Under the pieces are notes generated by a model, which was given only the letters and a program-made list of their open reading frames with translations, was not told where the DNA came from and did no database searches. Source: Fibrobacteria bacterium (GTDB lineage: Bacteria; Fibrobacterota; Fibrobacteria; UBA11236). From it: a stretch of DNA of 64,000 bases. Below, piece by piece: positions 22,379 to 58,968 of this stretch; the stretch's first letter is position 1, and the number at the start of each line of letters is the position of its first letter. The DNA lies in contig JBGTHM010000115.1 of NCBI GenBank assembly GCA_041746255.1, positions 1 through 64,000 on the forward strand, read 5' to 3'. Position numbers and translations under genes: made by a program.

Positions 22379-22465
22379 TGGTGCGGTCGGGCGGACTTGA
22401 ACCGCCATGGGTTTGCACCCGCCAGCCCCTCAAGCTGGTGTGTCTACCAATTTCACCACGACCGC
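22379..22465 (-). tRNA. tRNA-Leu (anticodon GAG)
   Basis: GCGGTCG acceptor stem, TGGTAGAC D-loop, CCAGC-TT-GAG-GG-GCTGG anticodon arm, long variable arm, GGTTCAAGTCC T-arm and encoded CCA; downstream of secG. Confidence 0.95.
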
Positions 22466-22522
22466 ATCTTTGGATTTACGTCAATTTTCCTTTTCAGCTT
22501 TTCCGACCCGAGCAACAGTTGG

Positions 22523-22906
22523 TTATTCCTGCGTTTCCGGCTGGGGGGAAGTCTCAAGACCGGGAATACCTTCGGAGGGTGCGTCACCCGGCGTCATAGC
22601 AGGAAGAATAGTGGAAAGCCCCCTATCTCCGGCGGCACCCTTGAGTTCGGATTGCGCTTGCGGACTGGTACTATTGGCCATTGCGTTCAAAACCAAAATG
22701 ACTACAAAAGAGGCCATAGCCACCCAAGTCGTCAATTTGGTTATGAAAGTCGCAGCGGATCCGCCGGAAAAGGCGGCGCCGCCTCCCATGCCGCCCAAGG
22801 CGCCGGCCAAGCCGCCGCCCTTATCGTTTTGCAGCAACACAAGTCCGATTAGCACGAAGCTGAGGAAGACGTGCAGGAGGAGAAGAAGTATGAACGAAAT
22901 TGTCAT
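22523..22906 (-). CDS. secG: Preprotein translocase subunit SecG
   Basis: LIGLVLLQNDKGGGLAG...ITKLTTW; conserved tpiA-secG-tRNA-Leu order. Confidence 0.92.
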   Translation of the reverse strand: MTISFILLLLLHVFLSFVLIGLVLLQNDKGGGLAGALGGMGGGAAFSGGSAATFITKLTTWVAMASFVVILVLNAMANSTSPQAQSELKGAAGDRGLSTILPAMTPGDAPSEGIPGLETSPQPETQE

Positions 22907-22928
22907 GAATTCATCCGTTTTGGAATTT

Positions 22929-23690
22929 TCAAGCGGCCCTAATAATATCTATAAAACTGGACGCCTTCAAGGAAGCGCCGCCGATCAACCCACCGTCCAC
23001 ATCCGGCTGGCTTAGAAGCTCAGCTGCGTTCTCCGGCTTCATGCTGCCGCCGTATTGGATTCGGATGGCGCCCGCGGCGGAATCTCCGAAAAGTTCGACC
23101 AGTCTTTCCCGCACAAAACGATGCGCATCTTGCGCCTGCTGGGTGGTCGCCGTTTTACCGGTGCCAATGGCCCAAACCGGCTCATAAGCTAGAACCAACT
23201 TGATGGCTTGCTCAGGCGCCAAGCCTTTCAGGCTTCCCTTTACCTGTTCGGAAAGCACTTGTTCGGTTTGATCCGCTTCGCGCTGTTCCAGGGTTTCGCC
23301 GATACATACGATGGGAATAAGATTTTCCGCCAAGGCTTTTTTCACCTTACGGTTCACCGTTTCGTCGGTTTCCTGAAAATACGATCTTTGTTCGGAATGG
23401 CCCAATATCACATATTCGGCGCCGGCGTCGCGAATCATGTCGAATGAAACCTTTCCGGTGAAAGCGCCCGGGTTTTCCCAATGACCGTCTTGGGCGCCCA
23501 CGCGCACCTTGCTTCCGGCAACGGCTTTGGCCACCTGCGCTAAAGCGATAAAGGTGGGGCATACCACCACGTCCACGCTTTCCCGTTGGGATATCGCCTC
23601 GAGAGCCGTGACGATTTCACGCGCCAGGCTTTCGGACTGTGCCAGGGATTGGTTCATTTTCCAATTGCCGGCGATGATTTTACGACGCAT
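22929..23690 (-). CDS. tpiA: Triosephosphate isomerase
   Basis: [22 protein letters not shown] and YGGS motifs. Confidence 0.98.
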
Positions 23691-23705
23691 ACGAATTTTC
23701 CTTGT

Positions 23706-24902
23706 TTATTTATCGGTTAGGGCGGCCACGCCCGGAAGCACTTTGCCTTCCAGAAATTCCAGGGAAGCGCCGCCACCCGTGGAAACGTGGGAAACTTGAT
23801 CGGCCAAGCCGCGTTGTTCAATGGCCGCGGCCGAATCGCCACCACCAATAATGGTAATAGCCCCTTTTTCGGTGGCTTCGACCAAAGCTTCGGCAATCGC
23901 GAAAGTTCCGGCCGCGCTGGCGGGAATTTCAAAAACTCCCATGGGCCCGTTCCACACCACGGTCTTGGAGCCGACGATGATTCGGGCAAAATGCCTTACC
24001 GATTCAGGACCGATATCCACGCTTTCCATCTCGACGGGAATCCCCTTTTGGGAAACCGTGCTCATCGTCCCCAAAGTGCGGGCCTTGAAATCGAGCTTAT
24101 CCGTCACCTTGAAGTCGATGGGAAGCTCGATTTTACCGCCGAAACTTTCCAGCAAGGACTTGGCCAGGTCTATTTTGTCGTTTTCAACCAGTGATTTACC
24201 GATTTCCAGTCCCATGGCTTTCAAAAAGGTATAAGCCATCCCGCCGCCGATGAGCAATTTATCCACCTTGGGTAGGAGCGCCTGCATCACATCGATCTTG
24301 CCGGAAATTTTGGCGCCACCGATAATGGATACAAAGGGACGCGCGGGATTCTCCAGCGCACCCCCAAGAAAATCGAGTTCCTTTTTCATCAAGTAACCGG
24401 AAGCGCTCTGCTTGATGAAACGGGTAATTCCTTCGGTGGAGGCGTGGGCGCGATGCGCCGAACCGAAGGCGTCGTTCACATAAAGGTCGGCTAGCGCGGC
24501 CAATTTCTTCGCGAAACCTGTTTCGTTTTCTTCCTCTTCGGCATGGAAACGCAGATTTTCGAGGAGGAGAATCTGGCCGTCGGCAAGTGCATTAACGGCT
24601 TGTTCGGCCTGGGGTCCGACGCATTCCCGGGAGAAGGCTACGGGACGGCCCAGTAAATCGGCGAGGACCTTGGCGACCGGTTCCAGGCTCATCCCCTCGG
24701 TAGGCTTACCTTTTGGCCGTCCGAGGTGGGACATTAGAATGGTTTTAGCCCCCTGGCCCTGTAAAAATCGGATGGTGGGTAGGGATTCGCGCAAGCGCTT
24801 GTCACTTTCCACCACACCGTTCTTAAGAGGCACGTTGAAATCCACCCTGACGATAACGCGTTTTCCCGCGACATCAAGATCTTCCACGAAGAGCTTGGCC
24901 AT
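23706..24902 (-). CDS. pgk: Phosphoglycerate kinase
   Basis: RVDFNVP, SHLGRP, LLENLRF and [13 protein letters not shown] motifs. Confidence 0.98.
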
Positions 24903-24933
24903 TCGGCATTCCTTTCAAATGAGACATCGGTAG

Positions 24934-24970
24934 AAAAAGAGCCGCCGCGTATCGACACGGGGCTCTTTTT
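24934..24970 (-). terminator. Intra-operon stem-loop or terminator between gap and pgk
   Basis: aaaaagagcc...ggctcttttt inverted repeat immediately after the gap stop codon. Confidence 0.6.
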
Positions 24971-24974
24971 GGAA

Positions 24975-25979
<1,005 letters not shown>

Positions 25980-26093: not shown

Positions 26094-27689
26094 TCAGGGC
26101 GGAAACCCGTATCGATCCCGATTTTTGTCGATTATCATAGTCGCAATGATTTTGGGAACGTACTCGTTGGTTTCCTGGGCCAGATATCCCATACGGTAAA
26201 TATACCAGAAATCTCTGTTATTGACGGGGTCGTCAATCCGACGCAAGGCCCCACGCACACGGCCTTCACCGGCATTGTATGCCGCCATCGCCAAGGCCAC
26301 GTCTCCGAATTCGGCGTAAAGCCGCTTGAGATAGCGTATCGCCGCCCGCGTCGACATCAACGGGTTGGTCCGTTGATCCTGGGCGATGGGCGCTGAGCGC
26401 CAATCGTTCGGGACATGCAAACCGTAATCCCGGCCCGTGGCCGGCATGAACTGCCACAAGCCTCGTGCGCCCGCGCTGCTCACAATGGCCGTATCCAAAC
26501 CACTCTCATGCACGGCCAAATAGAAAAAGGCCAAAGGCATTCCCGCATCGAGCAATTCGCGCTGGATGAGGTCGTAATACCGGCTCTTGCGGGTAAGCGC
26601 AAGCTGGATGGAGTTTTTTACCGAGGTGCGCGTAAAAGTGCGAATGTGCTTCTCGACCTGCGCGATAAAAATATCGGGAACCACGTAATTCTGCTTCCCG
26701 AAGCCTTCCAGGATAATCTGGATTTCTTTTCCCAGGGGATTGGAATAAGTGTTGATGAGATCCTTCGACCGCAAATGGCCGCGAAGGTTCATCAACTGCC
26801 TTTCGGCGGCGCGCAACTGGGCCACCATCATGCTTTTTTCCGAATCCTGCCCGGGTTCCGGCGCATCGGACCCGGTTTCCATGTGGGCGAGTTTTGCTTC
26901 CAATTGTTCGATGTTGGCAAATAATTTTTCCTGTTGGACCAGGCGTTTCCGGTAGACAAATATTTGCACTACCAACATTATTATTACAATAAGGGAAACC
27001 GAGGCGATACCCCCCGCCACCCATCTCCCCCGCCTACGCGAACGGGAATAGGTTTCCGCGGCGTGGCCGATCATGCGGGCGTCGCGTTTCCCCAGGGCAT
27101 TGCTGGCTACCAGACGTTTGACACGCCCGGAATTACGCATCAAATCCTTGATTTCCTCTTCACCCGCCTCATCTTCGGATATGCGCTGAGCCAAACCCAG
27201 GGTAAAGCTGCCCGCATCGATTCCGGAGGCGACGGAAGGCGCCATCGGCGCCGTCGAGGGCATTTCCGGCCGGGTGGGTGAGCCCGGGGGAAGCGAGTTT
27301 TCCCTCGACCCGGAAAATCCGCCCGTACTTTTATCATAACGGAGGCCGGGAGTCAGCGGCATGCTGCGGGAGAAGGTCTCGGTGCCACCGGTTTGCACGC
27401 GTAATTTGGGTCCGTTTTGCCCCAAACTGACAACTTCGTTGAGGGCCAATCGATGTTCGAAAACCCGCACTCCATTGACGAAGACTCCGTTACGGCTGTC
27501 CAGGTCGCGTAAAATCAAATCGCCGCCCACCCGCTCGACAACCGCATGCCTGCCGGATACCAATCCGGCGTCGGGACCGGTGAAGGTTACGGTGTTTTCG
27601 GGCGATCGACCTAAACCCACCTTGTCCTCGATTTTTATTTTCCGGCCCGCCTTGGATCCGGAGATGACATGGAGAAATAAGTCGTCCAT
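26094..27689 (-). CDS. FHA-domain / TM / coiled-coil / SLT lytic transglycosylase (MltD-like) fusion
   Basis: FHA motifs GR...VSGRHA...SRNGVFVNG, a TM segment, and SLT motifs HESG, GARGLWQFMPATG, AAYNAGEG and ETNEYVPK. TAATG overlap with the upstream gene. Confidence 0.85.
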   Translation of the reverse strand: MDDLFLHVISGSKAGRKIKIEDKVGLGRSPENTVTFTGPDAGLVSGRHAVVERVGGDLILRDLDSRNGVFVNGVRVFEHRLALNEVVSLGQNGPKLRVQTGGTETFSRSMPLTPGLRYDKSTGGFSGSRENSLPPGSPTRPEMPSTAPMAPSVASGIDAGSFTLGLAQRISEDEAGEEEIKDLMRNSGRVKRLVASNALGKRDARMIGHAAETYSRSRRRGRWVAGGIASVSLIVIIMLVVQIFVYRKRLVQQEKLFANIEQLEAKLAHMETGSDAPEPGQDSEKSMMVAQLRAAERQLMNLRGHLRSKDLINTYSNPLGKEIQIILEGFGKQNYVVPDIFIAQVEKHIRTFTRTSVKNSIQLALTRKSRYYDLIQRELLDAGMPLAFFYLAVHESGLDTAIVSSAGARGLWQFMPATGRDYGLHVPNDWRSAPIAQDQRTNPLMSTRAAIRYLKRLYAEFGDVALAMAAYNAGEGRVRGALRRIDDPVNNRDFWYIYRMGYLAQETNEYVPKIIATMIIDKNRDRYGFPP

Positions 27690-29023
27690 TATCGAGACGG
27701 GGCGAGTGGGGTTAGAGGCGGAAACCGTACGGTATCGGCGCCCACGGCTCCGTTGGCCCAATTGCAGCCGGACGCCGAAGCATCCCTGATCTGGGTTTCC
27801 GTGCGTAACTCTTGCGTAGAGAAAGCTTTTGCCGGTCCATCGTGCACATCCTGATCTTCCACCAACAAATATTTATCCCGGAAATCGCCGGGAGAGGCGT
27901 TTTCGGCAAGCATGCCTTCCAAAAAAGTCACCAGTGCGGGTTGGAAAAGACAGCGCTCCGCAACGGGGCCTGCCACGCGGCGGGCCACGCGACCGGCGAA
28001 AAGAAAAATTCGCGCGGCCTCAGGATGGGTGCGTAAAAAGTTTATCCAGGCCTGTGATTCGCTTTCGGAATCCATTTCAAATTGAATACACATCGCGGCC
28101 TGTAGCGAAGCGCCGAGCCAGGCCAATTTATCCCATTCGGCGACGTCGGCCTGTGGATCGGAAGCGAGCCCTACTCGCACATAGGGAAAACACAGCGCCG
28201 CGACCCGGGCATCACCGGCCTCTCCATTCGCATAAGGTTTTAAGTATTCCCCCAATTCCCCGGCCCTCCAGGTATTAGGTACCAAATGAATGATTTGCTT
28301 TTTCCGCCCATTGGCCTTTTTGGCCAACCGGTTTAATCCCACCAGAAATGCAAGGGTCTGTTCAATACGGGGATCGGAAAGCAAGGCATCCAGAGCCTTT
28401 CCCGCTGCCTGGCGAAGTTCTTTTAAGAGCCCGGCAACACCTGACTCGTTGAGTTCAAATCCCGTGGCTTGGCCACCCACGGCGGCTATCAACTCTTGCA
28501 CGCCACCTACCCCGCTTTGCGTGGAGCCTTCTGAAGTCCGAAAAGAACTTTCCAGGACCCGGTTCCGGTAAAACGCCGGTAATTGCAAAAGGTCTAGGTT
28601 GCGCTTGGCTTCGGCGAAGGGAATTTGCCGTTTCAGAACCCGCTCGAGAAGGGCGACCAAATCATCGAGAAGTGCGAGTGAATCCACACCGCGTAAGGCT
28701 ATCGGTGGTTTTAGGGCGGCTATACCCTCGACTCCCCAATGCACGGGTCCGGGTCCTTGCGTCCAAGGCAAATGGAGATCGATTTCCAAATCGGCGCGTA
28801 CCGCGATAGCCTGGGCCAAATCGTCGCGGGCGAAGTTATTGAAGGCTACCGGCCCATTGAGAGAGAGTTCCGTGGGAGCCGACAAGACATAATGCCAAAC
28901 CGAATCGGCTTGGGTTCGAGGAAGAACGGCGGCGGAGGGATTGTTTCCGGCAATCGGGTCTGTATGCGACTCGGATAACGAAGCGTCAAGCCCGACTTTG
29001 ACGCTGTGGATTTCTTCTCCCAT
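27689..29023 (-). CDS. Putative diverged TssB-TssC (T6SS contractile sheath) fusion protein
   Basis: Several segments align by eye, in order, with TssB and then the N-terminal/central part of TssC (see findings); low identity. Confidence 0.5.
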   Translation of the reverse strand: MGEEIHSVKVGLDASLSESHTDPIAGNNPSAAVLPRTQADSVWHYVLSAPTELSLNGPVAFNNFARDDLAQAIAVRADLEIDLHLPWTQGPGPVHWGVEGIAALKPPIALRGVDSLALLDDLVALLERVLKRQIPFAEAKRNLDLLQLPAFYRNRVLESSFRTSEGSTQSGVGGVQELIAAVGGQATGFELNESGVAGLLKELRQAAGKALDALLSDPRIEQTLAFLVGLNRLAKKANGRKKQIIHLVPNTWRAGELGEYLKPYANGEAGDARVAALCFPYVRVGLASDPQADVAEWDKLAWLGASLQAAMCIQFEMDSESESQAWINFLRTHPEAARIFLFAGRVARRVAGPVAERCLFQPALVTFLEGMLAENASPGDFRDKYLLVEDQDVHDGPAKAFSTQELRTETQIRDASASGCNWANGAVGADTVRFPPLTPLAPSR

Positions 29024-29243: not shown

Positions 29244-32200
29244 ATGTTTAGCCGAATCCAATCCCATATACCGTTTTCCTATACGGCCATTCGGTGGTGC
29301 CTGCCCTTGCTGGGATCGCTGCTTTTATGGGGCTGTGGATCCTCAGGAAAAAGCCTGCGTACGAAAGCCTGGGCCACGAACGACTCACTGGCCTACGGGT
29401 TGCCGGGAGGAGTGGATTTACCCGCATACCTTCCCTATTTTGAGGGTTTTTCCAGTGGCGCCGGATTCGGTTTACGGGCAGAACCCGGGACCTGGGTGCA
29501 AATCCCATCCGAAAGAACGGTGCAAGGTCTTCCCCTGCTGACTGCCGTTGAAGCACGCGAAAGGCATACCCGACTCCGGATTTTTGAAACACGCCGATAT
29601 GCGGGAATTCCCGATTCCACTGAATTTTTGGAAATGCTGGGCTTTCTCTTTAAACTCGGACCTTGCAACGCGGCCGCGATCCCGAAAACCACGGTGGAAG
29701 GGATGATGATAAACCCGGAACCTGCAATCCTATGCGATACGGGAGATACCCTTTACCACTGGGCCACCCTGGTACAACTCGACAGTACCGTATTGCTTGC
29801 TTTGGTGGAATCCAAACTCCCCATGGACCGCGAAAAGGCCGGTTCCTGGCAAAACCTGAACCTCAGTCTAAAAGAGGAAAGCGACGTTCCCCCCGAAACC
29901 GAAGAAGCTTCGCAATCCTTTATGGCCGCGGTATTGAATGCCTCGGGTCTGAAGGCTTTGGAAGATTCGTTGCATGTTCTCGCCATGGAGCGTTTTCAAT
30001 CCGCTCTGAAATTGGACAGCGCTTGTGCTTCCTGCCTCATCAACATCGTGGGGCTCCACCAATTCCGTAATCAAAATGCCGCGGGCATAACGGAGCTAAC
30101 TCGGCACGCTGGCCTGGTAGCCTCATCCTGGCGTCTCATGTCCATTTTTGGGTCGCTCTATGAAGCCGTCGGCGACTTTGAAGAGGCCAAGAATTGGGCG
30201 CTTCGATCGCTGGAGAAAAACCCGGACGATTTGGAAACCCTTATTAACCTGAGTGATGCTCTATGGGGTCTCGGCGATCGGGTCCGTTCGAAGACGGTCT
30301 TGCTTAAACCCTATGGTATCAGGCCTAATTTCCGGCTCGCCGTCTACCTGGCCAGTACCCACCTGGGACTGGAGGAGTTCGAAAAGGCCTTGGAAGTACT
30401 GCAAACCGCCCACCGCGAAAGCGAGCCCGACAAACGCTCCACCGAGTTTACCCTGCGGGCCCTCCTGGGTCTGAAACGTTATGAGGATGCTTTGGCGTTT
30501 TTACGCAAAAAACCCGATAGCGTAACCCACACCTCGGCTAACCTGTACCTTCAGGGTGTCGCCGAATTCCATCTCAAGCTGTATCGGCTGGCATCCCAAT
30601 CCCTGAGTCAAGCCCTTGAACTGGACGGAACCAATCGGGAAGCCCAGCAACTGGCCACACAGACGTCGGCCATAATCGGAAACAAGTCGAACCATATCCT
30701 GCGAACCCCCATCGCTCCCCTGCGAACCGAATCCGTTTTGAAAAAAGCCCTCAACCTGATCACAACTCCCGAGGCGCGCCAGGCCGCTACGGAACACCCC
30801 TACATCGTCCTCAACCGGCATATCGCCTACCGGTGGGCACCGAACGGCAAGTGGAAACGCACGGAGCATCAATTGAGCTACGTCCCGGACGGCGCAAAAC
30901 TCATCCGTTTTTCCGAGCTCACCTATAACGTGGTTCCGGGCTATAGCCGCTTTCATGTAAACATGTTCCGGATCTACGATGCGAAGTTGAAACCCGTGGG
31001 TGACGGCGATATTTCCCGTTATTATGTGACAAAAAATCACAATACCACCTTGCATCCGGAAAACCTGCTCATCCACCTCCCCATTGAGGCGAGACCGGGA
31101 GCTTTTTTCCTGGAGGTGGTGACTACCGAAGAAGCGGAAAACCCGTCTCCCGAATTTCCCTACCTCGATTATGTCAACTCATCGGCTTATCCGGTATTGC
31201 GAACCCGTTTCGATATTCTTTCTCCGCCTTCGGGTTTGCGAGTGGACGCCTTCGGGGGAGGCCAGGTGGACAGCTCCGCTCGCATGACCACCATCGAGCT
31301 TTCCGAAGCGCTCATCGCCGAACCCGAACGGTTCAGCCCCGCCCTGGATCAAATAGCCGGAGGCTTTTCCGCCGCCCCACTTAAAACCTGGAAGGAAGTG
31401 GGAGAGGATTATCTGCATCGGCTCCACGCGGAAGGAATTCGACTCGACAGCGTTCCGCTGGCGGTGCGGGAGGTGACGGGTGAAGCCATGCAAGGCGCGA
31501 CGGGCGATCCCGTGCTTACGCTCTACCGTTTCGTACGCGACTCCATCCGCTATACCAATTACGAGTTCAACCTGCACGCCATGGTGCCGACCACGCCCGA
31601 GGCGGTGCTGGAAAAACGGATTTCCGACTGCAAGGGCCATGCCGTATTGCTCGCGCAAATGCTGATCACCTTAGGCATCGAAGCGCGCCTGAGTCTCGTG
31701 CATCTTACCCAAACCGGGTTTGCCAATCAGCCCAGTCTACACCAATTCAATCACATGATAGTGCATGTGCCCGCTCGCGAAGGCAGGGAGGAACTCTTCC
31801 TCGATCCCACGGAAAAATTCCAACCCTTTCGCTCCTCTCCGCTGGCCTTGGAAGGGAAGAACGTACTTTCGCTCCATCCAGGCCGTTCCGCTCTGACCAC
31901 CATTCCCGAGGTCCATAAACCAGGGGAGCATGGTGTCCGCATTTTTCATGTTCTCAACGTGGCCCCCGACCAATCCGCCTCCGGAGTCGACAGCGTTGTC
32001 ATGACGGGGAAAATCGCAGCGGAGTTCCGTTCCCAATTGTCGAGGTGGAAATTCAATTACCAGCGCAGCGCTAACATTTTGAGCTGGCTGGCCGAAAGCT
32101 ATCCCCATTTCACGGACGAAAATTTCACCATTTTGAACGAGAAGGATCCGGATAAACCGTTGATCATGTTACTGAAGTACCGGCATAAATTCCTTTTCCA

Positions 32201-32564
32201 GGCGCATATGGAGGAATTCGTGCACTACCCCAAACTGGAGTTGAGTTTTCTGCGCTATCCCAAACCCCAGTCCCGTAAAGCCCCCATCTATATTCCCCAT
32301 GAAGTGGAAATAAATTCCCAATGGATTTACCGCATTCCCAGCGGTTATGCCTGGAGGTCGCTATCGTTGGACCGTGAATTTTCAGGCCGGAATCTGCATT
32401 GGAAATTGTCGATTAACCACGCGAAACCGGAAGAAATCCTGATCTTGCAGAATTGGCAGGTTTCTCCCTTTCTGGCCTCGCCCGACGAATACGAGGCGAT
32501 ACGTAAGGAGTGGGACTCGATTCTGGGTAGTGCTGAGCTCAAATTGATGTTAGTCCGCAAATAA
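29244..32564 (+). CDS. Lipoprotein with TPR repeats, DUF3857-like region and transglutaminase-like domain
   Basis: Lipobox LWG-C, TPRs, and Cys-His-Asp triad motifs SDCKGHA / FNHMIV / FLDPT. Confidence 0.75.
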
Positions 32565-35558: not shown

Positions 35559-35615
35559 TTAACCGCATCACAGACCGACGGCGCGGGTTCCGCCGGATGC
35601 GTGGAAAGGACTCGC

Positions 35616-37079
35616 ATGGAATACAGCAGAGTGCAGGATTTCCAGATTCATCCCAATCAACCCGCGCAATTCGCGGGATACCAAATCCTGGAGCATCTGG
35701 GCAAGGGCGGCATGGGCGATGTTTACAAAGCCCTGCAAATCGGCTTGGATAGGACCGTGGCCCTGAAAATCCTGCCTTCCCTCCTCGCCCGTAATCCCCA
35801 ATTTTCCGAACGTTTTTTCTCGGAAGCCTATGCGATTTCACGACTCCAACACCAGAATATCGTAACCATCTACGACTATGGCGAAGAAAATTACCAGAAA
35901 TACATCGCCATGCAATACGTGCAAGGCCCCACATTAAGCCAATTGCTTAAGCAAAACGGTCCGCTCAATTGGCCGCGTATCATCCACATCACCAAGCAAA
36001 TCGGGCGCGGACTCAAATATGCGCATCAAAGCGATATCGTCCATCGCGACATCAAATCCGGCAACATCATGGTGGAGGCGGGAGATCGCGTCTATATCTC
36101 CGACTTCGGCATTGCCAAGGTCATCGACGCCCCCAATATTACGACTACGGGCATGACCATGGGCACACCGGAATATATGGCGCCGGAACAATGCCAGGGC
36201 GGAATCGTAGACGGACAAAGCGACATTTACGGTCTCGGCATCATCCTGTTCGAACTGGTTACGGGAAAGCCTCCCTTTTTGGCCGACACCTCGCTGGCCG
36301 TCGCCTTCAAGCAAGTTCACGAAGCGCCGCCGCTGCTCAGCCAAATCAGGCGCGACATACCGCCCCGGCTGGAACTCATCGTGGCCAAGTGCCTGAAAAA
36401 AGATAAGGCCGACCGCTATAAAAATGCCGATGAATTATTACACGATCTCGACTCGGTGGATAAGCCCTCCCCTATTCAGGTAGATGTTCCCGCCGCCCCG
36501 AGCAACCAGCGTATTACCGACCGCCGGGAAATGCCCCGGCGACGGGGGCTGACACCGCAAATCCGTCGGCGGGTGGAATTCCTTCAACCCGTATTGATAG
36601 TCATCTTGTTTCTGGGTCTGGCCTATGCCTGGATTCGCCCCACGGCGAACCCCGGCTTACACCTTGCCTCGCCAGTAGCCGCGGAAGGAAAAATATTTTC
36701 CGACGGTGTCGGCGAATATCCCCCGCAACTAGCGGTCGATGGAGACCCCACCACCGCTTGGGTAACCCTTCCTTTGAACGTAACCGCGGATGCGGAGTTA
36801 CGCCTGCCGGTGCCCCCAGGACATTTACTGATGGGAATCACCCTGGAGGTGGGACCGGCGGGAGAAAGCACCGGCATCCTGCTCGGCGCCCCATCCCGGG
36901 TAATCGTCGGGTTACGGGGGGAAGAGCCGCGCCCGTTTGATTTACTCGCCACATCCGCTCCACAATACCTTCCCTTGTCTGGTTCGACCTCAGGCGATGT
37001 GTCCCTGCGTTTCGAAGCTCCGGAAAATTCGCCGCCTCTGGCGGTACGCGAACTGCGCCTGGCCCTGCTCCCGCTCTGA
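35616..37079 (+). CDS. Membrane Hanks-type Ser/Thr protein kinase with extracytoplasmic discoidin-like domain
   Basis: GKGGMG, VALK, HRDIKSGN, DFG and APE motifs; TM segment; C-terminal AVDGDPTTAW motif. Confidence 0.9.
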   Translation: MEYSRVQDFQIHPNQPAQFAGYQILEHLGKGGMGDVYKALQIGLDRTVALKILPSLLARNPQFSERFFSEAYAISRLQHQNIVTIYDYGEENYQKYIAMQYVQGPTLSQLLKQNGPLNWPRIIHITKQIGRGLKYAHQSDIVHRDIKSGNIMVEAGDRVYISDFGIAKVIDAPNITTTGMTMGTPEYMAPEQCQGGIVDGQSDIYGLGIILFELVTGKPPFLADTSLAVAFKQVHEAPPLLSQIRRDIPPRLELIVAKCLKKDKADRYKNADELLHDLDSVDKPSPIQVDVPAAPSNQRITDRREMPRRRGLTPQIRRRVEFLQPVLIVILFLGLAYAWIRPTANPGLHLASPVAAEGKIFSDGVGEYPPQLAVDGDPTTAWVTLPLNVTADAELRLPVPPGHLLMGITLEVGPAGESTGILLGAPSRVIVGLRGEEPRPFDLLATSAPQYLPLSGSTSGDVSLRFEAPENSPPLAVRELRLALLPL

Positions 37080-40892: not shown

Positions 40893-43340
40893 TCACAAGC
40901 TGGAGCTACTGAGCGCCTTCGGTAAATCGATTCCCACACCGAATTGCACGTAGAGATAAGGGGAGTCTTGATTCAACCCCCCCAAGCCGGCGCGTACGGG
41001 ACCGGCCGGCGAGGCCCAATCCAGGCCCGTTTCCCAATAGTATTGACGCGGAGTGATTTCCATCCCATGTTGTGCATGTAATTTTTCCATGCCATCGCCC
41101 AGCCTTTCAAATGCACCGACTCCCAAAAGCAAAGTCCACCGTTTCCAGGTTGGCCGCCAATTTACTCGGGCGTTCAGGAAATATTCGGATAAAAAAGGCA
41201 ACATCATCGCGGTATTTTGGAAGGAGAGGGCCTGCGCCTCACCCAAGACCAGGATTTCGGGAGGGAATTTGACTACTGGATCCAAATCCGACCAATAATA
41301 ATGGCCATGCATGGCCCAGTCACCCCAATGTAAATCCACGCCGGCCTCACGCACTTGCGAAGGCGGTTTGGGCGCTCCGAAAAGGATTTCCGGGTTTCGA
41401 TGTTTATAGCGTAGGAAAAATTGGTGCGTCGCCTTTAAAAAGTCTTTCGGCGAACGAATGCGGATTTCCTGGGTAAAGTCGGTGGAAAGATAGGAACCAC
41501 TGGGTATGACCAGGATGGGCAGAATCTCAGGCGTCTCGATTTCGACATCCTCGTCCTTATACAAAATTTCCACGCGGGCAATTTGAGTCGAGAATTCGAG
41601 GGGGGAATCGGGGAAAAGCCGTAAAAAAAGTTCGCCCTGGTCCAGTTTCACATCGGTGGAGATGGCGCCGAGTTTCCGTAAGGCCCGTGTGGGCTCCGGA
41701 TGAAGCCACTCCTGGATATACCTGCGAACTCCAAATTGCAGCGTTACCGGATGCAAGGGATGCGCGAAAACTTGTCCTCCGTAACCGCTCCCTCTGCCTC
41801 CGAGAGCCAATGCGCCGTCGACCACGAAAGGAACGTAAAAGGGCTCCGCCCACGTCAGCCTCCCGAATGCCTGGGTATTCCGGCCGCTTAGCCAATTCCC
41901 TCCACCCTGAAGGGTGATTTTCGATTTTTCCATCCCCTCGAATAACAAAGAGGAGCGCCCAATCACCGAATCGCGCACCCAGGAAACATCCAGGTTACTA
42001 TAAAACCCGGAAAACGCCAGCGATTCCATCGCCACCCGGTTCAATTCGGGAGTCTGTTTTTTTGATTCCCGTTGCAACATGTCCAGCAGCAATTGCCTGC
42101 CTCCCGACGCCAATTCATCCACCGACACATGTTCAATGCCCAAGGGAAGCCGGGCGGAAGCCATGGTTTTCCCGTCCCCCTCTTTTTTTCCCAACACCGC
42201 CCGCAACACGTCCATCATTTCCAGAACCGCGACATATCCCCGCATCCGCCACGCTTCGGGCTTCAACCTCTCCGCGGAATCCAGGGGAGGAATCACCGGT
42301 ATTTCCAAAATTTTATCCTCGTTACCGCTCCAACTCTGTTGTGAAGACCTTCGTTTCACCTGCTGGTTGAGAGAATCGATCCAAGGCGGATCGCCATGCG
42401 AGAAACCCGGAACAGCGCCGCTACCGGAACGGAAATCGACGATAAGCAACCTGTCGAAAGTGAAAGCGGAATCCCGCAATATCGGCATATTCCCGGAGAC
42501 CAAGGAGCCCGATGTCAGGAAAGAGCGGTACTGCCTCTCTCGAACCCACTCGCTTGGAAGCACCGAAGCCTTGAGCAATTCCTGCAGTGAACCGCTGCCC
42601 GCAGTGACGATATCCCCCGTACGGGTATCGGTCATTTGTAAATACAACTTGCGGCGCGTATGCTCCAATCGATCCACGGGCCCACCCGGCGCCTCGTGAC
42701 TCACTTGCGCCATCAGCCAGGCGGCATGCACATGCTCCGATGTCAGTGTGCTGGGACGGGTTCCCAAACGTAAATTTTCACCGCTACCGCTGATATTACC
42801 CAGCCGGTATTCCAATTGGGGACGACCATGCCGCCGAAAAAAATCGGCGGGCCCTGTAGGCGGAACCCTTTCCAAAGGACGAAAATAATAGCCGGGATCG
42901 CGCTCCAGCAATCGCACACCCAATTCATCCAAGGGATAATCGACGGCCCAGGCGGCGCCCAGCAAGGCGGATATCCCCTCCGCCAAAACCACATCGGGCT
43001 CCAGTCCATAATCGCGCATGGCTTGCAATGCGCCCAATTGGGTAAACAGCAACCAATTATCGCTGCTGAGAAACAGCACGTTGCCATGATGCTCACTTCC
43101 CGGAAGCGCTTTCTGGGCTCCGGAGTCCGGCACAGAAACGGCCGCCGTATTGTGCGGTTCTGGCTGCTCAGGAGGCTTTGGTAAGCTCGTGCCTACGGTG
43201 TCTTCAGCTTGTTCGGGAGGGTCGGGAAGGTTTTCCGAGGTATCCAGCGTTACGAACGCGAAGGAAGAGGTCACCAGCAGGGCTAGAGTCCCAAAAGCCA
43301 GGGCGGTTGTGTTTTTCCGGGATCGCTTTTTAATTTGCAT
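40893..43340 (-). CDS. Degenerate patatin-like domain fused to a C-terminal beta-barrel (PlpD-like architecture)
   Basis: Signal peptide, patatin-like spacing without the catalytic motifs, and a C-terminal WASPAGPVRAG...YVQFG Omp85-like end. Confidence 0.6.
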   Translation of the reverse strand: MQIKKRSRKNTTALAFGTLALLVTSSFAFVTLDTSENLPDPPEQAEDTVGTSLPKPPEQPEPHNTAAVSVPDSGAQKALPGSEHHGNVLFLSSDNWLLFTQLGALQAMRDYGLEPDVVLAEGISALLGAAWAVDYPLDELGVRLLERDPGYYFRPLERVPPTGPADFFRRHGRPQLEYRLGNISGSGENLRLGTRPSTLTSEHVHAAWLMAQVSHEAPGGPVDRLEHTRRKLYLQMTDTRTGDIVTAGSGSLQELLKASVLPSEWVRERQYRSFLTSGSLVSGNMPILRDSAFTFDRLLIVDFRSGSGAVPGFSHGDPPWIDSLNQQVKRRSSQQSWSGNEDKILEIPVIPPLDSAERLKPEAWRMRGYVAVLEMMDVLRAVLGKKEGDGKTMASARLPLGIEHVSVDELASGGRQLLLDMLQRESKKQTPELNRVAMESLAFSGFYSNLDVSWVRDSVIGRSSLLFEGMEKSKITLQGGGNWLSGRNTQAFGRLTWAEPFYVPFVVDGALALGGRGSGYGGQVFAHPLHPVTLQFGVRRYIQEWLHPEPTRALRKLGAISTDVKLDQGELFLRLFPDSPLEFSTQIARVEILYKDEDVEIETPEILPILVIPSGSYLSTDFTQEIRIRSPKDFLKATHQFFLRYKHRNPEILFGAPKPPSQVREAGVDLHWGDWAMHGHYYWSDLDPVVKFPPEILVLGEAQALSFQNTAMMLPFLSEYFLNARVNWRPTWKRWTLLLGVGAFERLGDGMEKLHAQHGMEITPRQYYWETGLDWASPAGPVRAGLGGLNQDSPYLYVQFGVGIDLPKALSSSSL

Positions 43341-46399: not shown

Positions 46400-47071
46400 T
46401 CAATGGAGATCTTCGGCCCGCACCCTGACTCCACCGAACTGCTCGAGCAAATACACAGCCTGGCGGATAGGATCCGATTCCTTGCTTCGCGCCAGACTTT
46501 CCGCTCCTTGCAGGATCAAGGGGAAGGTCCGGTACAAATCGAGCTTCCAACCGCCGCGTTCATTCACAAAATGGAAAACGGGAACCCGATCGGCTTTCGC
46601 AAACCCTAATTCCGCCGAATTACCGAAAACATGGTAGTTTCCCAGACCGCCTTTCAAGATGCTGCTCTTGACGGTCGAATTATGCATAACGGCTTTCTCG
46701 AGGATGGACATGGGAGTGGGTATGAAAGCGGGATTAAGGCGCTGCTCCACGCGTAAGGCCACAACCGTCAGCACTTCAAAGAAGGGGCGTTCCCGCAATC
46801 TGTCCGCCTTCTCGGCCCGGGCCGAATAACGCATGTCTTGCAGCCATTCCTGTGTCCGGGTGGAAAGCCCCTGCAATACCGCTTCGGAATTTCCCGCCTG
46901 GACGGCCTGGCGGAAAGAGAGGAAGAACTTCTCCACCGCCGCCGCGGCTTCGGGATCCGACTCCGCCACCCGCTGGGAAGCGCTTCCTCCGGCACATCCC
47001 ACAAGCAAAGCCGTCACAACGAGCAACAGGGCAGGAAATAAGGAGTTACTTCCTCTTAGCACGGCTCTCAC
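46400..47071 (-). CDS. Hypothetical lipoprotein
   Basis: Lipobox LVG-C; start overlaps the stop of the upstream gene. Confidence 0.6.
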   Translation of the reverse strand: MRAVLRGSNSLFPALLLVVTALLVGCAGGSASQRVAESDPEAAAAVEKFFLSFRQAVQAGNSEAVLQGLSTRTQEWLQDMRYSARAEKADRLRERPFFEVLTVVALRVEQRLNPAFIPTPMSILEKAVMHNSTVKSSILKGGLGNYHVFGNSAELGFAKADRVPVFHFVNERGGWKLDLYRTFPLILQGAESLARSKESDPIRQAVYLLEQFGGVRVRAEDLH

Positions 47072-49398
47072 CGCAGATTATCCTCTAAAACGGCCAGCCG
47101 ATTCGCGAAAGCAGCGCGTTTCTTTTCCCAACTTTTTCGACTCCATTCGTCGTCGGGTCGGAACTGTTTGTGCGTGAAAAAATCCAGGAAATCCGCCAAG
47201 GCATCCCTGTCAAAGGGGTTTTGGAAAATGAGGTAACCTTCGGCAATAGCCAATGCCTCGTCGATATTCCGGTTATCGATGTTCGTATTTTCCCGCCACG
47301 TCCAATAGGCCAAGGCCGCCGCTTCCGCCTCCACTCCTTGCTGTAATCCCAAAGCCTTCAGTGCGAATCCCCGGGCCATTTGCGGGTTGGATTGGATTTC
47401 CGGTTGCCGCAACAGAAAATCCAGGGAAAGTCCGTCCAGTTCTTCGCTGTCAATACGGTACAACATGGCCTGCAAGGCTTCCACACGCTCTCCCTCCCGC
47501 AAGAGACAACCTGCGAGCAAAATCGCCATACCCCCGGAAAGCCTCCTTTCGCGGCTGTATAGTCTGATGAAATTTATGGCGCGAGCGTATTCCCCGGATT
47601 GATAAAGGCTGCGTAAATATTCCAGCATCTGGCTTTCGTACACCTGGTGTTTCAGGAGAAATTCCGACATGACGGAATCGGCGTCGGAATCCTGGGACTT
47701 TATACCCGTCCAATAGCGGTATTCCCAATCCGGGAAATGCAATCCCGTTCCTGCCGACCTGCCGAGATGGTGGATGACGTCCGGTAAATCCTTGCCGGAG
47801 GAATGCGCCAAAAGGTATTGCAAATACGCTTCGCTTTGGGCCTCCGCATCTTTTCCGAGAATTCCAATCACTTCGTCATAACGGGAGTCCGGAACGACAA
47901 CGGCAAGAGTATTGTAAAGACGGCTCCAATCTTCTCCAAAGCGAGTCCATCTTTGGTCGTCCCAGATATCGTAGGTATTGACGTCGTAGGTTACCAGCGT
48001 GCGTAAAACCTCATCGTATCCGAAAACCGCCAGCACATGGCCCGGTATGAATGTCAGCACGGGAATACCGGCATCGATAAGCCGGAATAAATCCTCCATT
48101 TTTCTCAACGGCAAAACCAGATTCCGGAATCCCCGCGATTCCGCGAAGAAAACCTCGTCCGTCATAAGGCTTCCCTGTTCCAATTGCGTGATTTCGGCTC
48201 CGATATGCCTGGCTCCCGCCCGATCACCCCAAAAGTTTAAAATGAGTCCCAGCGAATTCGGAACGCAATAGGCGCTTTTGTATTCCGTCTTCGCTTCGAT
48301 GCCCGGTATCACCACCCTGCGGCTACGTTCCCCGTCCGCGGTATCCAACCTGTCCTTGAAATCATGCGCATCCAAAAGCAACTGCGATTGCCGGTTATGC
48401 TTGACGATCATGGACACGAACGCTTCTTTCGCCTCTAAGATTTTCCCGTTCTTGCGATGGAGCAAACCTAAACGGAATTGCAGATAAGACTTCAGCGATG
48501 CCGATTCGGATCCTTCCAAGGCGCGTGAATAGAAGGGTACGGACCAATGCGTCATCCCCTGCTTTTCAAAATATTGTCCCAACAAAAGCGCATAGCTTAC
48601 CGGGGTGCCGGTAAAGAAGGTTACACCGGCCATGGACACCAGCAACGCACCCATGCGCCGGCCGAATCGCCCGGTAAAGCGTCGGTTGAACGACAAAGCT
48701 CCCTTCGAATCCTGGAAAGCGAGAATGACGGGAGGTAAGGCGATTAGCCATAACAAGAGGAAAAGGGATTGCCGCGTGGTCTCAAACCAGGAAGGAAACA
48801 AACCCAAAGAGGCGACCTGCCAAAAAGGAACGACTACGGCAATGAGGAATAACTGGTAAATCACCATATGTGTGGTGAATGCCAGCAGGCAAAATCCCGC
48901 GAAACCGGGAACCGTGGGCGCTTTGCCGAAACGTGCGAGCGGCAGCGCGCAGAAAAAAACCAACAAAATCAGGGAAGTCCAAGCTACGCCCAACCCGGTG
49001 GAGATTCCCTCCAAGGAGGCGTTAACCGGATAATACCGGCTCCATAACGCATCCGCCAGCCATTGTTCCCAGGCAGCCCACATGAGCGCGGGAGGGGCGG
49101 CCGCCAGGGTAACGGCGGCGGCGATGCGGAGCGTGTTGATTCTCCGTTGCGGATGCGGCTGACGAGGCCCGGAGTGGCGTGCTATCAGATAAAGGAAAAA
49201 GGGAAGATTCCAAAACAGGTATCCAGCGGGCGGCAACCACCAGGCGGGCGACCAAATCAGCAGCAGATAAGGAGGAAGTCCGCCCAGAAGGAAAATCCGC
49301 TTCATCCGCCGGGAAAATTCCGTTCCCATGAAGAAAAGCGCCGCCCAGGGTCCGCCCAATAGCGCCAACAAGCTTGCGAAGCGGGGCAGTTTTGTCAT
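47068..49398 (-). CDS. Multi-TM protein with TPR and C39-like cysteine peptidase domain
   Basis: Hydrophobic N-terminal third; SAYCVPNSL (Cys), GHVLAVFGYD (His) and VTYD (Asp). Confidence 0.7.
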   Translation of the reverse strand: MTKLPRFASLLALLGGPWAALFFMGTEFSRRMKRIFLLGGLPPYLLLIWSPAWWLPPAGYLFWNLPFFLYLIARHSGPRQPHPQRRINTLRIAAAVTLAAAPPALMWAAWEQWLADALWSRYYPVNASLEGISTGLGVAWTSLILLVFFCALPLARFGKAPTVPGFAGFCLLAFTTHMVIYQLFLIAVVVPFWQVASLGLFPSWFETTRQSLFLLLWLIALPPVILAFQDSKGALSFNRRFTGRFGRRMGALLVSMAGVTFFTGTPVSYALLLGQYFEKQGMTHWSVPFYSRALEGSESASLKSYLQFRLGLLHRKNGKILEAKEAFVSMIVKHNRQSQLLLDAHDFKDRLDTADGERSRRVVIPGIEAKTEYKSAYCVPNSLGLILNFWGDRAGARHIGAEITQLEQGSLMTDEVFFAESRGFRNLVLPLRKMEDLFRLIDAGIPVLTFIPGHVLAVFGYDEVLRTLVTYDVNTYDIWDDQRWTRFGEDWSRLYNTLAVVVPDSRYDEVIGILGKDAEAQSEAYLQYLLAHSSGKDLPDVIHHLGRSAGTGLHFPDWEYRYWTGIKSQDSDADSVMSEFLLKHQVYESQMLEYLRSLYQSGEYARAINFIRLYSRERRLSGGMAILLAGCLLREGERVEALQAMLYRIDSEELDGLSLDFLLRQPEIQSNPQMARGFALKALGLQQGVEAEAAALAYWTWRENTNIDNRNIDEALAIAEGYLIFQNPFDRDALADFLDFFTHKQFRPDDEWSRKSWEKKRAAFANRLAVLEDNLR

Positions 49399-57236: not shown

Positions 57237-57764
57237 ATGCTAACGAATAAACCGAATAAATTGACCCACCGCAAAGTCTGGTCGCCTGCGGAGCTGGCCC
57301 TGCTGCAACGCCAGGATCCCAAGGCTTTCCTGCTCGCGAAGTCCCATGCCAAATTAACCCGGCCCTCGCAGGCCCCGTCCCTGCTTTTAGCCCATGAGAA
57401 AAAGCTGAAGGTCAAGCGCACCAGTCTAAAACCCTTTTTAATGCCGGTTTTGGGAACCGTAGCCCTGGCCCTGGGAGTTTGGCTATGGCCTACCAATGAA
57501 AATGCCGCTTTGGCCCCGGCTGCCGCAAGCAAGGTGACTCCGCTTTCCGAACCGGCCGTGGAATTGAGCCCCAATCAACAAGCCTTATATTGGACTTACG
57601 CTCTCTACGACTTCGACAGACTCAAAGAGGATTTCCGGGTTCCCGCGCACACGATAGTCGACCATACCCATGCCTCCGCGGCGCTGCAGGCGCTGATGCC
57701 GTCCATCGATCGTCCGACCCGATACATAATCGACCGGTACATACCCCAGGGCAGGAAAATATGA
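57237..57764 (+). CDS. Bitopic membrane protein of the pilin cluster (paralog of 60845..61303)
   Basis: Basic N-terminus, one TM and a conserved YW.YALYD motif; ATGA overlap with the pilin gene. Confidence 0.65.
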   Translation: MLTNKPNKLTHRKVWSPAELALLQRQDPKAFLLAKSHAKLTRPSQAPSLLLAHEKKLKVKRTSLKPFLMPVLGTVALALGVWLWPTNENAALAPAAASKVTPLSEPAVELSPNQQALYWTYALYDFDRLKEDFRVPAHTIVDHTHASAALQALMPSIDRPTRYIIDRYIPQGRKI

Positions 57765-58147
57765 TAAGGCCGCAAGCCGGATTTTCCATGTTGGAAGTGT
57801 TGGTCTCCATGGTCATCGTGGGGATATTGGCCTCGTCGCTTTTCTACTTCCTTTCCGCCCAGAACAAAATGGGAATTATGACCACCGATATGACCAACGG
57901 ACTGAATTTCGGCAAGCAGGCCATGGACTCCCTCAAAGTACTGGACTATTCCGAAATAGCCGCCGGATCGGACATCATTCAGGAACGCTATATCCGGAGC
58001 TGGACCATCACCACGGTGAGCGATGACATGGGAGTGCCGATGGGACGTAAGCGCATCGATGTCAACGTTTTCTGGCCGCTCACAGCCGATCACGGAGTTT
58101 CCATGGTAACCCTGTTAAGCGACGATGAGTTCAAGGAGAATCAATGA
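57761..58147 (+). CDS. Minor type IV pilin (PilV-like)
   Basis: Class III signal QAG/FSMLEVLV with E5. Confidence 0.85.
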   Translation: MIRPQAGFSMLEVLVSMVIVGILASSLFYFLSAQNKMGIMTTDMTNGLNFGKQAMDSLKVLDYSEIAAGSDIIQERYIRSWTITTVSDDMGVPMGRKRIDVNVFWPLTADHGVSMVTLLSDDEFKENQ

Positions 58148-58902
58148 ATACCGGGGGCAAAAGAGCGGATAGGGGTTTCACCCTGGTGGAAATCCTGATC
58201 GGCATGCTGATCAGTTCCGTCGTCCTCACCGGGCTCTACCGAATGTGGCTCAGCAGCAGCGAGCAAAGCGTACAGCTTCGCCAGAAAATCGAAGTGCGCA
58301 ATCAAATCACCCTGGCGAGCAAAAACCTGCAATCGGCCATAACCCTGGCGGGTTTCGGCATGCAGGGTGTAAAGAATATCGAGAAATTCGACGGTGTGGG
58401 AACCGACACCCTGCTGATTTTTTCCAACAAAAGCAGTCATCAAACTGCTTTGGGCGTGAGTTATTGGTCCGGGCAAGATCATTTCAATGTTTCGGATCCC
58501 TCCATTTTTTCCGGCGCGGCCTATATCGCGATAAAAGATGACGCGGGCGGCGAAATCCGTAAAATCACCTGGAAAAATTCCAACAATATCGGCGTGGAAG
58601 AAGCCATCGGCCGTAATTTCGATATGGATAACAGCATCGTCATGCCGATCTTCCTCGACAAATACTATACCGATCAAACCCATCAGAAACTGATGGCGGT
58701 TTCCAATGGCGCGGGCCGCATCATAGGCCACAACCTTACCAATTTCCAGGTGGCTTTCAAGGATAAGGACGGCGTTTCCACTTCGATTGTCAATGATATC
58801 CGTTCCGTCACTTTTTCGTTTACGGGAGTCTTTTCGGCCAAGGAAGGCGCAATCAGCAATATCAACTTCACTACTACGGCCATCCCACGGAATCTGATCT
58901 AA
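58144..58902 (+). CDS. Minor type IV pilin (PilW-like)
   Basis: RG/FTLVEILIG, I.LAGFG, N.Q..F and the C-terminal PRN motif. Confidence 0.85.
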   Translation: MNTGGKRADRGFTLVEILIGMLISSVVLTGLYRMWLSSSEQSVQLRQKIEVRNQITLASKNLQSAITLAGFGMQGVKNIEKFDGVGTDTLLIFSNKSSHQTALGVSYWSGQDHFNVSDPSIFSGAAYIAIKDDAGGEIRKITWKNSNNIGVEEAIGRNFDMDNSIVMPIFLDKYYTDQTHQKLMAVSNGAGRIIGHNLTNFQVAFKDKDGVSTSIVNDIRSVTFSFTGVFSAKEGAISNINFTTTAIPRNLI

Positions 58903-58968
58903 CCGGGATAGCGGGAAAAAATTGAAGGGGATTACACGAGTCGAATGAACCCTGTCCGGAGGAAAACC

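Follow-up and report, generated by a model that had tools for sequence, protein, structure and literature searches.

The contractile sheath of the T6SS (type VI secretion system) has been viewed as a dedicated polymer of two proteins, TssB (VipA, HsiB1) and TssC (VipB, HsiC1). According to the available text of PMC5807055, in the inner layer of the Pseudomonas aeruginosa sheath (domain 1), two TssC strands form a sheet, to which a neighbouring TssC adds its C-terminal strand and a neighbouring TssB its N-terminal strand to complete it, an arrangement called a handshake; domain 2 is a sheet that mixes TssB and TssC, and a three-helix bundle makes up domain 3. For tubule formation, the C terminus of HsiC1 is reported to be essential, and the first 212 residues of HsiC1 to be enough for the binding of HsiB1 (PMC3597794, in its accessible part). 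Wall-cutting proteins that help the T6SS are known, among them TagX of Acinetobacter and MltE of enteroaggregative Escherichia coli, the gene for which lies outside the cluster (PMC13584744, in its accessible part). In the present study, we analyzed a 64,000-nucleotide stretch of DNA from a Fibrobacteria bacterium (assembly GCA_041746255.1, contig JBGTHM010000115.1, positions 1 to 64,000; hereafter, the window), in which a preliminary description, made from the sequence alone, had pointed to two adjacent open reading frames (ORFs), here called A and B. Profile comparisons and a predicted fold show that A descends from the contractile sheath of the T6SS, with TssB fused to TssC in one chain. 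As for function, we give an even chance to the reading that A and B are a displaced T6SS accessory pair, consisting of a non-polymerising sheath subunit and a phospho-regulated cell-wall cutter.

ORF A (27689..29023, minus strand) starts with ATG and encodes 444 amino acids (aa), a C-terminally truncated, single-chain TssB-TssC-like paralogue of the sheath. A word-indexed search of 5.8 billion proteins with A alone as the query gave one relative (53% identity), and with the family alignment as the query it gave 3 proteins; this index falls short of the A family. An exhaustive HMMER search of 1.84 billion representative proteins with a two-sequence profile of A gave 16 proteins. Among the 1.84 billion, this profile matched P0010 (625 aa) at E 2.1e-10. 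P0010 has Pfam matches to both VipA (E 5.1e-21) and VipB (E 2.6e-45) and thus is a natural TssB-TssC fusion. When the A family profile was built without P0010 and compared with it by hhalign, the probability was 97.2% (E 3.2e-11, 285 columns), and the alignment covered the TssB-like part, the linker, and the beginning of the TssC-like part. Comparison with P0010 also confirmed the register of the two later TssC-like segments that had been picked out in the preliminary description.

P0010 belongs to one of two groups of fused TssB-TssC paralogues, t1 (570-625 aa) and t2 (500-620 aa, for example L049:7125-8792); here and below, numbers with G, L, and C denote genomes, loci, and contigs of the analyzed set of 296 genomes of the phylum, in which G000 is the window's own genome. 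Both groups were found by hhalign to be related to A (t2, E 6.4e-11, 287 columns; t1, E 4.7e-10, 365 columns) and to each other (E 4.3e-31). They lead on to the canonical sheath: t1 matches TssC at E 8.2e-51 over TssC 4-492 and TssB at E 1.1e-15, t2 matches TssB at E 2e-8, and the t2 protein of L049 matches the Pfam models VipA (E 1.4e-6, above the cut-off) and VipB (E 6.3e-5). Profile searches against TssB and TssC, proposed earlier as a check, gave a divided answer, negative with the curated models and positive through the fused proteins (hhalign E 3e-11 to 6e-11). In addition, the A family profile weakly matched the canonical 172-aa TssB ORFs of G019, G022, and G025 (E 1.2e-4 to 3.7e-4 per genome), and these matches spanned profile positions 47-137. 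The TssB-like part of A (residues ~43-165; 28529..28897, minus strand) was delimited by such profile matches to TssB.

The predicted fold gave the same assignment. An AlphaFold2 model of A from a 16-sequence alignment had a mean predicted local distance difference test score (pLDDT) of 83.7 and a predicted template-modelling score (pTM) of 0.81; it superseded a poor first model (pLDDT 43) from a 2-sequence alignment. Foldseek placed VipB at the top (3j9g, E 3.9e-7), followed by other sheaths from T6SSs, pyocins, AFP/PVC, and phages, so that the structural check suggested in the preliminary description found the predicted fold of A to match the N-terminal domain of VipB. VIA-align superposed model residues 169-444 on residues 46-374 of P. 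aeruginosa TssC1 (5n8n_B; Z 16.3, root-mean-square deviation (rmsd) 4.1, 263 residues) and model residues 192-444 on residues 61-368 of VipB (5myu; Z 16.1, rmsd 3.1 A, 248 residues), and single-chain sheaths, such as that of R2 pyocin, aligned from model residue 38 on, in keeping with the limits of the TssB-like part. All 50 of the 50 entries listed by VIA-align were contractile sheath proteins. From these ranges, A corresponds to TssB plus TssC as far as the end of the PF05943 region. Furthermore, VipB and VipA were found in 24 of the 30 nearest clusters (score 0.93) among the language-model neighbours of A in the ESM Atlas. The sheath likeness of A thus rests on three independent lines, which are sequence profiles, predicted fold, and language-model features. 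Together with synteny, these lines agree with the original view of a diverged fusion, TssB-like and then TssC-like, coupled to a gene with FHA, transmembrane (TM), and SLT segments.

Some results weigh against a sheath origin. A matched no family of Pfam or NCBIfam at E<=1, falling below the curated TssB/VipA models PF05591 and TIGR03358 as well as the TssC/VipB models PF05943 and TIGR03355, and BLASTP of A against TssB and TssC of its own genome gave E values of chance level only, at least 1.1 (TssC, E 1.4). A profile search of PDB sequences with the A family gave 7 matches at E<=10, with no sheath chain among them. Direct hhalign comparisons of A with the canonical proteins were weak, both for A 78-146 with TssB 71-143 (E 1.5e-3, probability 17%) and for A 174-312 with TssC 47-195 (E 0.01, probability 4%). 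Weak as they are, these direct comparisons put the parts in the correct order and register, and all five pairings of segments in the preliminary description lie in register with the computed alignments (TssB-like 78-146; TssC-like 174-312). Neither Pfam nor NCBIfam detects A, and annotation pipelines therefore overlook it. The best match in the PDB sequence search was 9hnh_A (173 aa, an unlabelled molecule; E 1.4e-4), in which a 31-residue stretch occurs twice; the match falls on profile positions 127-157 (A residues ~135-160).

The TssC-like part of A (residues ~189-444; 27692..28459, minus strand) corresponds to the N-terminal domain of VipB (the PF05943 region) and ends where PF18945 (VipB_2) would start. 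Model residue 444 of A aligns to VipB 368 and TssC1 374, at the C-terminal end of the alignments, and A 437 pairs with P0010 residue 509 (of 625), with A ending about 115 residues earlier than t1 and t2; the earlier remark that A stops before the C-terminal region of TssC is borne out by all three. Canonical TssC runs on for about 120 residues with the VipB_2 'gpW/gp25-like' domain (for example, 399-508 of the 513-aa TssC in G019). The truncation is not peculiar to the window, because the 24 genomic homologues are all 435-484 aa long and end at the same border as A. We also considered whether the C-terminal domain might be supplied to A in trans, and rejected this: in a search of the window's own genome at E<=0.1, which detects versions of the domain recognisable by Pfam, PF18945 was found in the canonical tssC only. 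Taken together, A appears to retain sheath domains 2 and 3, the middle-layer and outer helical parts, and it lacks the gp25-like PF18945 handshake layer. If so, A could not accept handshake strands, since this domain is absent, and could not build a tube alone.

The opposite end of A has been kept. The first 16 residues (28976..29023, minus strand) form an N-terminal arm with a conserved motif, I..[FS]xV..G, that recurs in the N termini of the family and is followed by a variable low-complexity linker; residues 1-33 are disordered in the model (pLDDT below 50). The motif is common to the t2 paralogues, the hhalign alignment of A with t2 beginning at A residue 2, and it occupies the position of the N-terminal donor strand of TssB. 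The arm of A may therefore be the equivalent of TssB strand beta-1, a functional donor arm. The maximal 19-residue Kyte-Doolittle mean of A is 1.5, that is, A has no hydrophobic segment and should be cytoplasmic.

The A family was found by profile search in 25 of the 296 genomes: 20 of the 31 genomes of family f1 plus G000, 1 of 6 in f2, 1 of 1 in f3, and 2 of 2 in f7. One of the 25 (G254) is an unpublished genome; its share in the tallies and alignments is a single row, and none of the claims depends on this genome alone. The word 'orphan' in the preliminary description is thus right in that T6SS genes are not found nearby, and wrong in that A has a family in the phylum. A diverges fast; between genera g1 and g3, the identity is about 27% for A, about 53% for B, and about 82% for the neighbouring gap gene. 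The reading frame is nevertheless intact, and the length conserved, in 24 of the 24 genomic homologues. The ratio of nonsynonymous to synonymous substitution rates (dN/dS), estimated for the 15 pairs with the lowest dS in genus g3, was 0.11-0.25 for A and 0.08-0.19 for B, with dS near saturation in many of these pairs. From these sequence comparisons, A is under purifying selection and is a functional gene. An explanation of a different kind is that a duplicated sheath gene is in decay and A is its relic, or that the sheath likeness of A is a product of chance or modelling. The lack of any curated model match, the fast divergence, the truncation, and the low pLDDT of the first model would all be expected from it; decay is contradicted by the intact frames, the conserved length, and the dN/dS of 0.11-0.25, on which ground we reject the earlier suggestion of a relic, and an artefact is contradicted by the agreement of profile, predicted fold, and language-model features on a sheath. 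We consider this explanation very improbable.

ORF B (26094..27689, minus strand) encodes a protein of 531 aa with a cytoplasmic FHA domain, a conserved cytoplasmic segment, one TM helix, and a periplasmic SLT lytic transglycosylase domain. Its start was set at the ATG at 27689 by alignment with 14 orthologues; the initial ORF call had used the TTG at 27761 (555 aa). With this start, the junction on the minus strand reads ...cgaTAATGgac..., in which the stop codon of A and the start codon of B have one base in common, and the TAATG overlap noticed earlier is thus present. The domains of B had also been correctly recognized: the FHA domain (residues ~26-90; 27420..27614, minus strand) matches PF00498 at E 9.8e-12 (45.6 bits; cut-off 20.7), the SLT domain (residues ~385-484; 26238..26537, minus strand) matches PF01464 at E 1.5e-22 (79.8 bits; cut-off 21.3), and residues 227-245 (26955..27011, minus strand) are the sole hydrophobic segment (mean Kyte-Doolittle value 2.74). 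Residues 394-396 of B are His-Glu-Ser, and all 15 of the sequences aligned share Glu395-Ser396; we take Glu395 to be the catalytic residue of the SLT domain. The TagH model TIGR03354 is matched weakly by B (E 2.2e-6, 27.7 bits, far under the cut-off of 120.25). A complex prediction for A with residues 1-232 of B scored 0.00 in both runs, which lacked controls, and gives no evidence either way. A second FHA-TM-SLT protein in the window's own genome, a paralogue with 44% identity to B, is encoded at C130:28411-29940 (the same as L085:10412-11941), between carotenoid-type genes and an HtrA-like protease gene, and has no sheath-like neighbour.

Conservation of the two-gene pair, suggested as a check in the preliminary description, was found in most cases: 21 of the 25 genomes with A have B directly downstream on the same strand, with short or overlapping junctions. 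Because this adjacency persists despite the fast divergence of A, it argues for co-expression under selection. In G269, contig ends leave the adjacency undecided. The exceptions that count against a fixed pair are G245, with A and B on separate contigs; G238 and G239, with A and no full-length B; and G263, in which B, gap, the divergent neighbour gene C, and a T6SS are kept and A is cleanly lost, leaving about 150 bp between B and C. The pairing is therefore strong and not obligatory. These exceptions bear on another explanation, in which A controls sheath turnover and has no functional link with B, acting either as a decoy or adaptor for ClpV through its domain-3 helices or as a chain terminator that sets sheath length, and the adjacency of B is historical. 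In Vibrio cholerae, the target of ClpV is the N-terminal helices of TssC (PMC5807055, in its accessible part), and A keeps the region aligned to these helices (model 169-236, against TssC1 46 onward); G238 and G239, with A and no full-length B, and G263, with B and no A, also fit such independence. The tight adjacency in 21 of 25 genomes, retained while A diverged fast, does not, and we regard this explanation as improbable, although less so than that of a relic or artefact.

The T6SS to which the pair might belong is not encoded nearby. A Pfam scan of 54 of the 55 non-overlapping window ORFs of at least 90 aa (3 at E<=1 and 51 at E<=1e-5; the antisense ORF 22407-23015, plus strand, was omitted) gave no T6SS family, in agreement with the earlier failure to recognize hcp, vgrG, or baseplate genes in the 64 kb. 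Elsewhere in the same genome, however, the end of contig C62 carries TssK, TssL, TssM, TssA, TssB, and TssC, contig C26 carries TssF and Hcp, and contig C66 carries ClpV (1060 bits, above the curated cut-off). Canonical tssC is present in all 25 of the 25 genomes with A, compared with 115 of 296 across the phylum. Of the inferences offered in the preliminary description, a satellite of a T6SS encoded elsewhere is consequently the best supported. The thought that A might be an ordinary accessory copy in a genome with a complete T6SS elsewhere holds for the presence of T6SS genes and fails for A, which is not an ordinary extra copy, because the polymerisation domain is absent and all the curated models are escaped. 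Four weak matches to the Hcp domain (E ~1e-6) also occur in the window's own genome (C123:9452-9895, C89:30898-31341, C80:9351-9800, and C125:82118-82546); each begins a long open frame (636-1111 aa), and they may be Hcp-effector fusions. L004 (CAYNXV010000005.1), from the same genus, was deposited as 'uncultured Bifidobacteriales'; the label looks wrong, since the window's own genome has a T6SS, TonB/ExbD, OmpA, and MreBCD, which point to a diderm.

Three further observations connect the pair with the T6SS. In genus g6, A, full-length B, and tssC occur only in G269 and G274, and the other 10 genomes (completeness 74-100%, 1.9-2.7 Mb) are without all three. In G045, which belongs to another family of the phylum, a canonical T6SS cluster (L104, C193:24000-43000) encodes TssE, Hcp, TssC, TssB, TssA, TssL, TssK, an ORF with no assignment, and TssM, and after TssM come a B-family protein of 618 aa, in which an FHA reader and a wall-cutting SLT enzyme are united, and a Ser/Thr kinase of 899 aa. 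This FHA-SLT protein matches the TagH model TIGR03354 at E 9.1e-9. In the closed genome G274, no FHA, SLT, or kinase gene was found at E<=1e-8 in the 40 kb around the T6SS genes, and the pair lies 275 kb from them. Judged from the sequences, a B-family member inside a T6SS cluster is stronger evidence for the link than the co-occurrence counts are.

Building on the homology, truncation, selection, synteny, co-occurrence with a T6SS, and the relative of B in a T6SS cluster, we infer the function and all physical interactions of the pair as follows. A would be a non-polymerising mimic of a sheath subunit that serves the canonical T6SS encoded elsewhere in the genome, and B would be a bitopic inner-membrane protein translationally coupled to A. 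The TagH-like FHA domain of B would read a cytoplasmic phospho-threonine signal, and its SLT domain would cut periplasmic peptidoglycan, so that B would open the wall at the site of T6SS assembly, as MltE and TagX do elsewhere. Candidate sites of such a phosphorylation are T163 of B, which is invariant, T187 of A, which is nearly so, and the linker of A, rich in S and T. During assembly, A might dock on the sheath or baseplate, with its N-terminal arm inserted, for example, into a gp25-like acceptor (TssE or domain 1 of TssC); once docked, A would either link the activity of B to that site or act on sheath growth as a cap or modulator. A more specific version, which we put forward only tentatively, is that A, having kept the donor arm and the outer domains and lost the polymerising domain, is an adaptor that joins a transmembrane lytic transglycosylase under phospho-regulation to the T6SS tail in the cytoplasm, and that in lineages with A and no B it is a switch outside secretion. 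If this is true, a sheath mimic signals where and when the wall opens.

The pair would also be a displaced, reduced form of an older operon that survives in distant relatives. In G045 and G064, t2 is followed in an operon by genes for a FecR (plus LysM) protein, a CHASE2 Ser/Thr kinase, an FHA-TM-SLT protein, and a radical SAM enzyme. In a quick maximum-likelihood tree search, in which branches are long and long-branch attraction is possible, A was monophyletic (SH-aLRT 100), and the split of A and t2 from t1 and TssC had an SH-aLRT of 98. In the simplest history that these sequences suggest, A and B are a reduced descendant of the t2 operon, A having lost the C-terminal domain and the FecR and kinase genes having been lost or moved. 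Fourteen t1/t2 loci were retrieved, and at all but L092 and L098 the neighbours were scanned (42 proteins at 10 loci, and those at L048 and L049). T6SS proteins were found neither among the 42 neighbours nor at L048 and L049, and with 0 of 42 scanned neighbours belonging to a T6SS, we rejected the idea that t1 and t2 are members of T6SS clusters in this phylum. Directly downstream of t1 in three genomes, there are ORFs of 396, 394, and 394 aa (L087:7557-8747, L088:7515-8699, and L097:8182-9366) that are negative in NCBIfam and may encode a partner of t1.

These loci bring in the chief competitor of the accessory-pair reading, a reuse of the sheath fold independent of the T6SS, in which A would serve in the cytoplasm as the scaffold or switch of a pathway based on Ser/Thr phosphorylation, a pathway that controls wall remodelling through B and perhaps the product of gene C. 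The t2 operon, the presumed ancestor, has FecR/LysM, CHASE2 kinase, and radical SAM genes and no T6SS parts nearby, the scanned t1/t2 loci are free of T6SS genes, and the paralogue of B on C130 sits in an unrelated context. The pair itself lies within a conserved housekeeping block, and most T6SS-bearing genomes of the phylum manage without A. Four observations speak against such a reuse: the canonical tssC that accompanies A in 25 of 25 genomes, the joint loss of A, full-length B, and the T6SS in genus g6, the B-family member inside the G045 T6SS cluster, and the conserved arm, which seems best explained by a handshake-type partner, a kind known only from sheath and baseplate proteins (our deduction from the accessible part of PMC5807055). 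We consider this reuse possible but rather unlikely.

The evidence for an accessory pair must be weighed against several facts that run counter to it. Ninety of the 115 tssC-positive genomes are without A. The genomes are related, so the co-occurrence counts represent few independent events, and the ten g6 genomes are small, so general gene loss could account for the joint absence. B is 32% identical to the FHA-SLT protein of the G045 cluster over residues 159-529, compared with 33-35% over the full length to those of the t2 operons, and the t1/t2 paralogue loci of the phylum lie among housekeeping genes. The order around the pair in the window is likewise that of a conserved housekeeping block: aminotransferase, ilvD, C (divergent), A, B, gap, pgk, and tpiA.

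The genes gap, pgk, and tpiA (22929..25976, minus strand) follow directly downstream of B on the same strand as a conserved context; the distance from B to gap is 117 nt, and the pair indeed sits beside gap, as had been noted. Loci of sheath paralogues repeatedly abut glycolytic genes, with iPGM by t2 in G045 and G066 (L048:5873-7387 and L094:7266-8852) and gap-pgk-tpiA by A and B, which may be coincidence or may reflect shared regulation. Gene C (29244..32564, plus strand; 1106 aa) is divergent from A and encodes Pfam TPR repeats and a transglutaminase-like core behind a lipobox-like N terminus. Its synteny with the pair extends over family f1, and it keeps its place in G263 too, which has no A; its product may be a periplasmic partner of B. 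The nearest kinase gene encodes a Ser/Thr protein kinase (35601-37079, plus strand; Pkinase E 5.7e-54) and lies 6.6 kb from A, past ilvD and the aminotransferase gene. As a conserved partner of the pair, this kinase was rejected, for the same place holds a clear orthologue in G265 (74%) and G263 (56%) only; genus g3 has only kinase-domain matches of about 32% identity, in another orientation, and we treat the kinase as context. Elsewhere in the window, a row of small genes at 57590-61686 (plus strand), three of them with prepilin-type N-terminal methylation motifs, resembles a type IV pilin or pseudopilin cluster, and two large ORFs (40893-43340 and 47068-49398, both minus strand; 815 and 776 aa) are Pfam-negative at E<=1e-5.

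In the literature searched (full-text search and a 2026 review of T6SS accessory factors, PMC13584744), supplements aside, we found sheath paralogues that are naturally fused or truncated described nowhere, and in the accessible text of that review the words 'sheath-like' and 'truncated' each occur 0 times. Threonine phosphorylation in the T6SS, through TagH/Fha1 with PpkA and PppA (PMC3953482 and PMC5995506, in their accessible parts), has a cytoplasmic FHA domain in common with B, and a Ser/Thr kinase adjoins the G045 cluster copy of the B family. B differs from TagH/Fha1 in being only a weak match to TIGR03354 and a membrane protein with an enzyme domain, and the A-B operon is without a kinase, the nearest being the one at 6.6 kb. 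MltE shares the SLT domain with B, and TagX shares the inner-membrane anchor and the periplasmic enzyme domain predicted for B; B adds to these a cytoplasmic FHA domain on the same chain and a sheath-derived partner, neither of which is reported for MltE or TagX in the accessible part of PMC13584744. If A docks on the T6SS, A and B together would offer a handle on the opening of peptidoglycan at the T6SS site and on its tie to Thr-phosphorylation signalling.

The closest counterparts of A itself are the sheath proteins. With TssB/TssC (VipA/VipB, HsiB1/HsiC1; 3j9g, 5myu, 5n8n, and 5urw), A has in common the predicted fold and the order of the parts (Z 16, 247-263 residues), a remote homology through the fused intermediates, and the genomes, as canonical tssC is co-present wherever A is found. 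The differences are that the T6SS sheath consists of two chains, with a separate TssB of about 170 aa whose gene lies just upstream of tssC, whereas A is one 444-aa chain; that the sheath has the PF18945 handshake domain needed for tubules (PMC3597794 and PMC5807055, in their accessible parts), whereas A is without it; and that canonical tssC lies in a T6SS cluster beside tssB and hcp, whereas A is encoded away from the cluster. Truncated fragments of the phage sheath protein gp18 are folded and unable to polymerise (PMC3597794, in its accessible part); those fragments are laboratory constructs, whereas A is a natural conserved gene for which the same non-polymerising behaviour is predicted. 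The fused paralogues t1 and t2 are, like A, single chains, TssB-like and then TssC-like, that exist alongside a canonical sheath pair, and t2 in particular carries the same motif in its N-terminal arm, has an FHA-TM-SLT gene linked to it in G045 and G064, and is the neighbour of A in the tree. They reach the C-terminal region of TssC (t1 against TssC 4-492; t2 against t1 to residue 622 of 625), whereas A stops about 115 residues short, and they differ again from A in that A has no similarity detectable by Pfam. A is thus the most reduced and most diverged form of a fused sheath paralogue. In the A family, the protomer of a polymer regarded as dedicated to secretion has been fused, stripped of its polymerisation domain, and kept by selection for another job; if A docks on the T6SS, it would represent a new class of accessory factor, a mimic of the sheath subunit, which surveys of T6SS accessory genes confined to the clusters would overlook.

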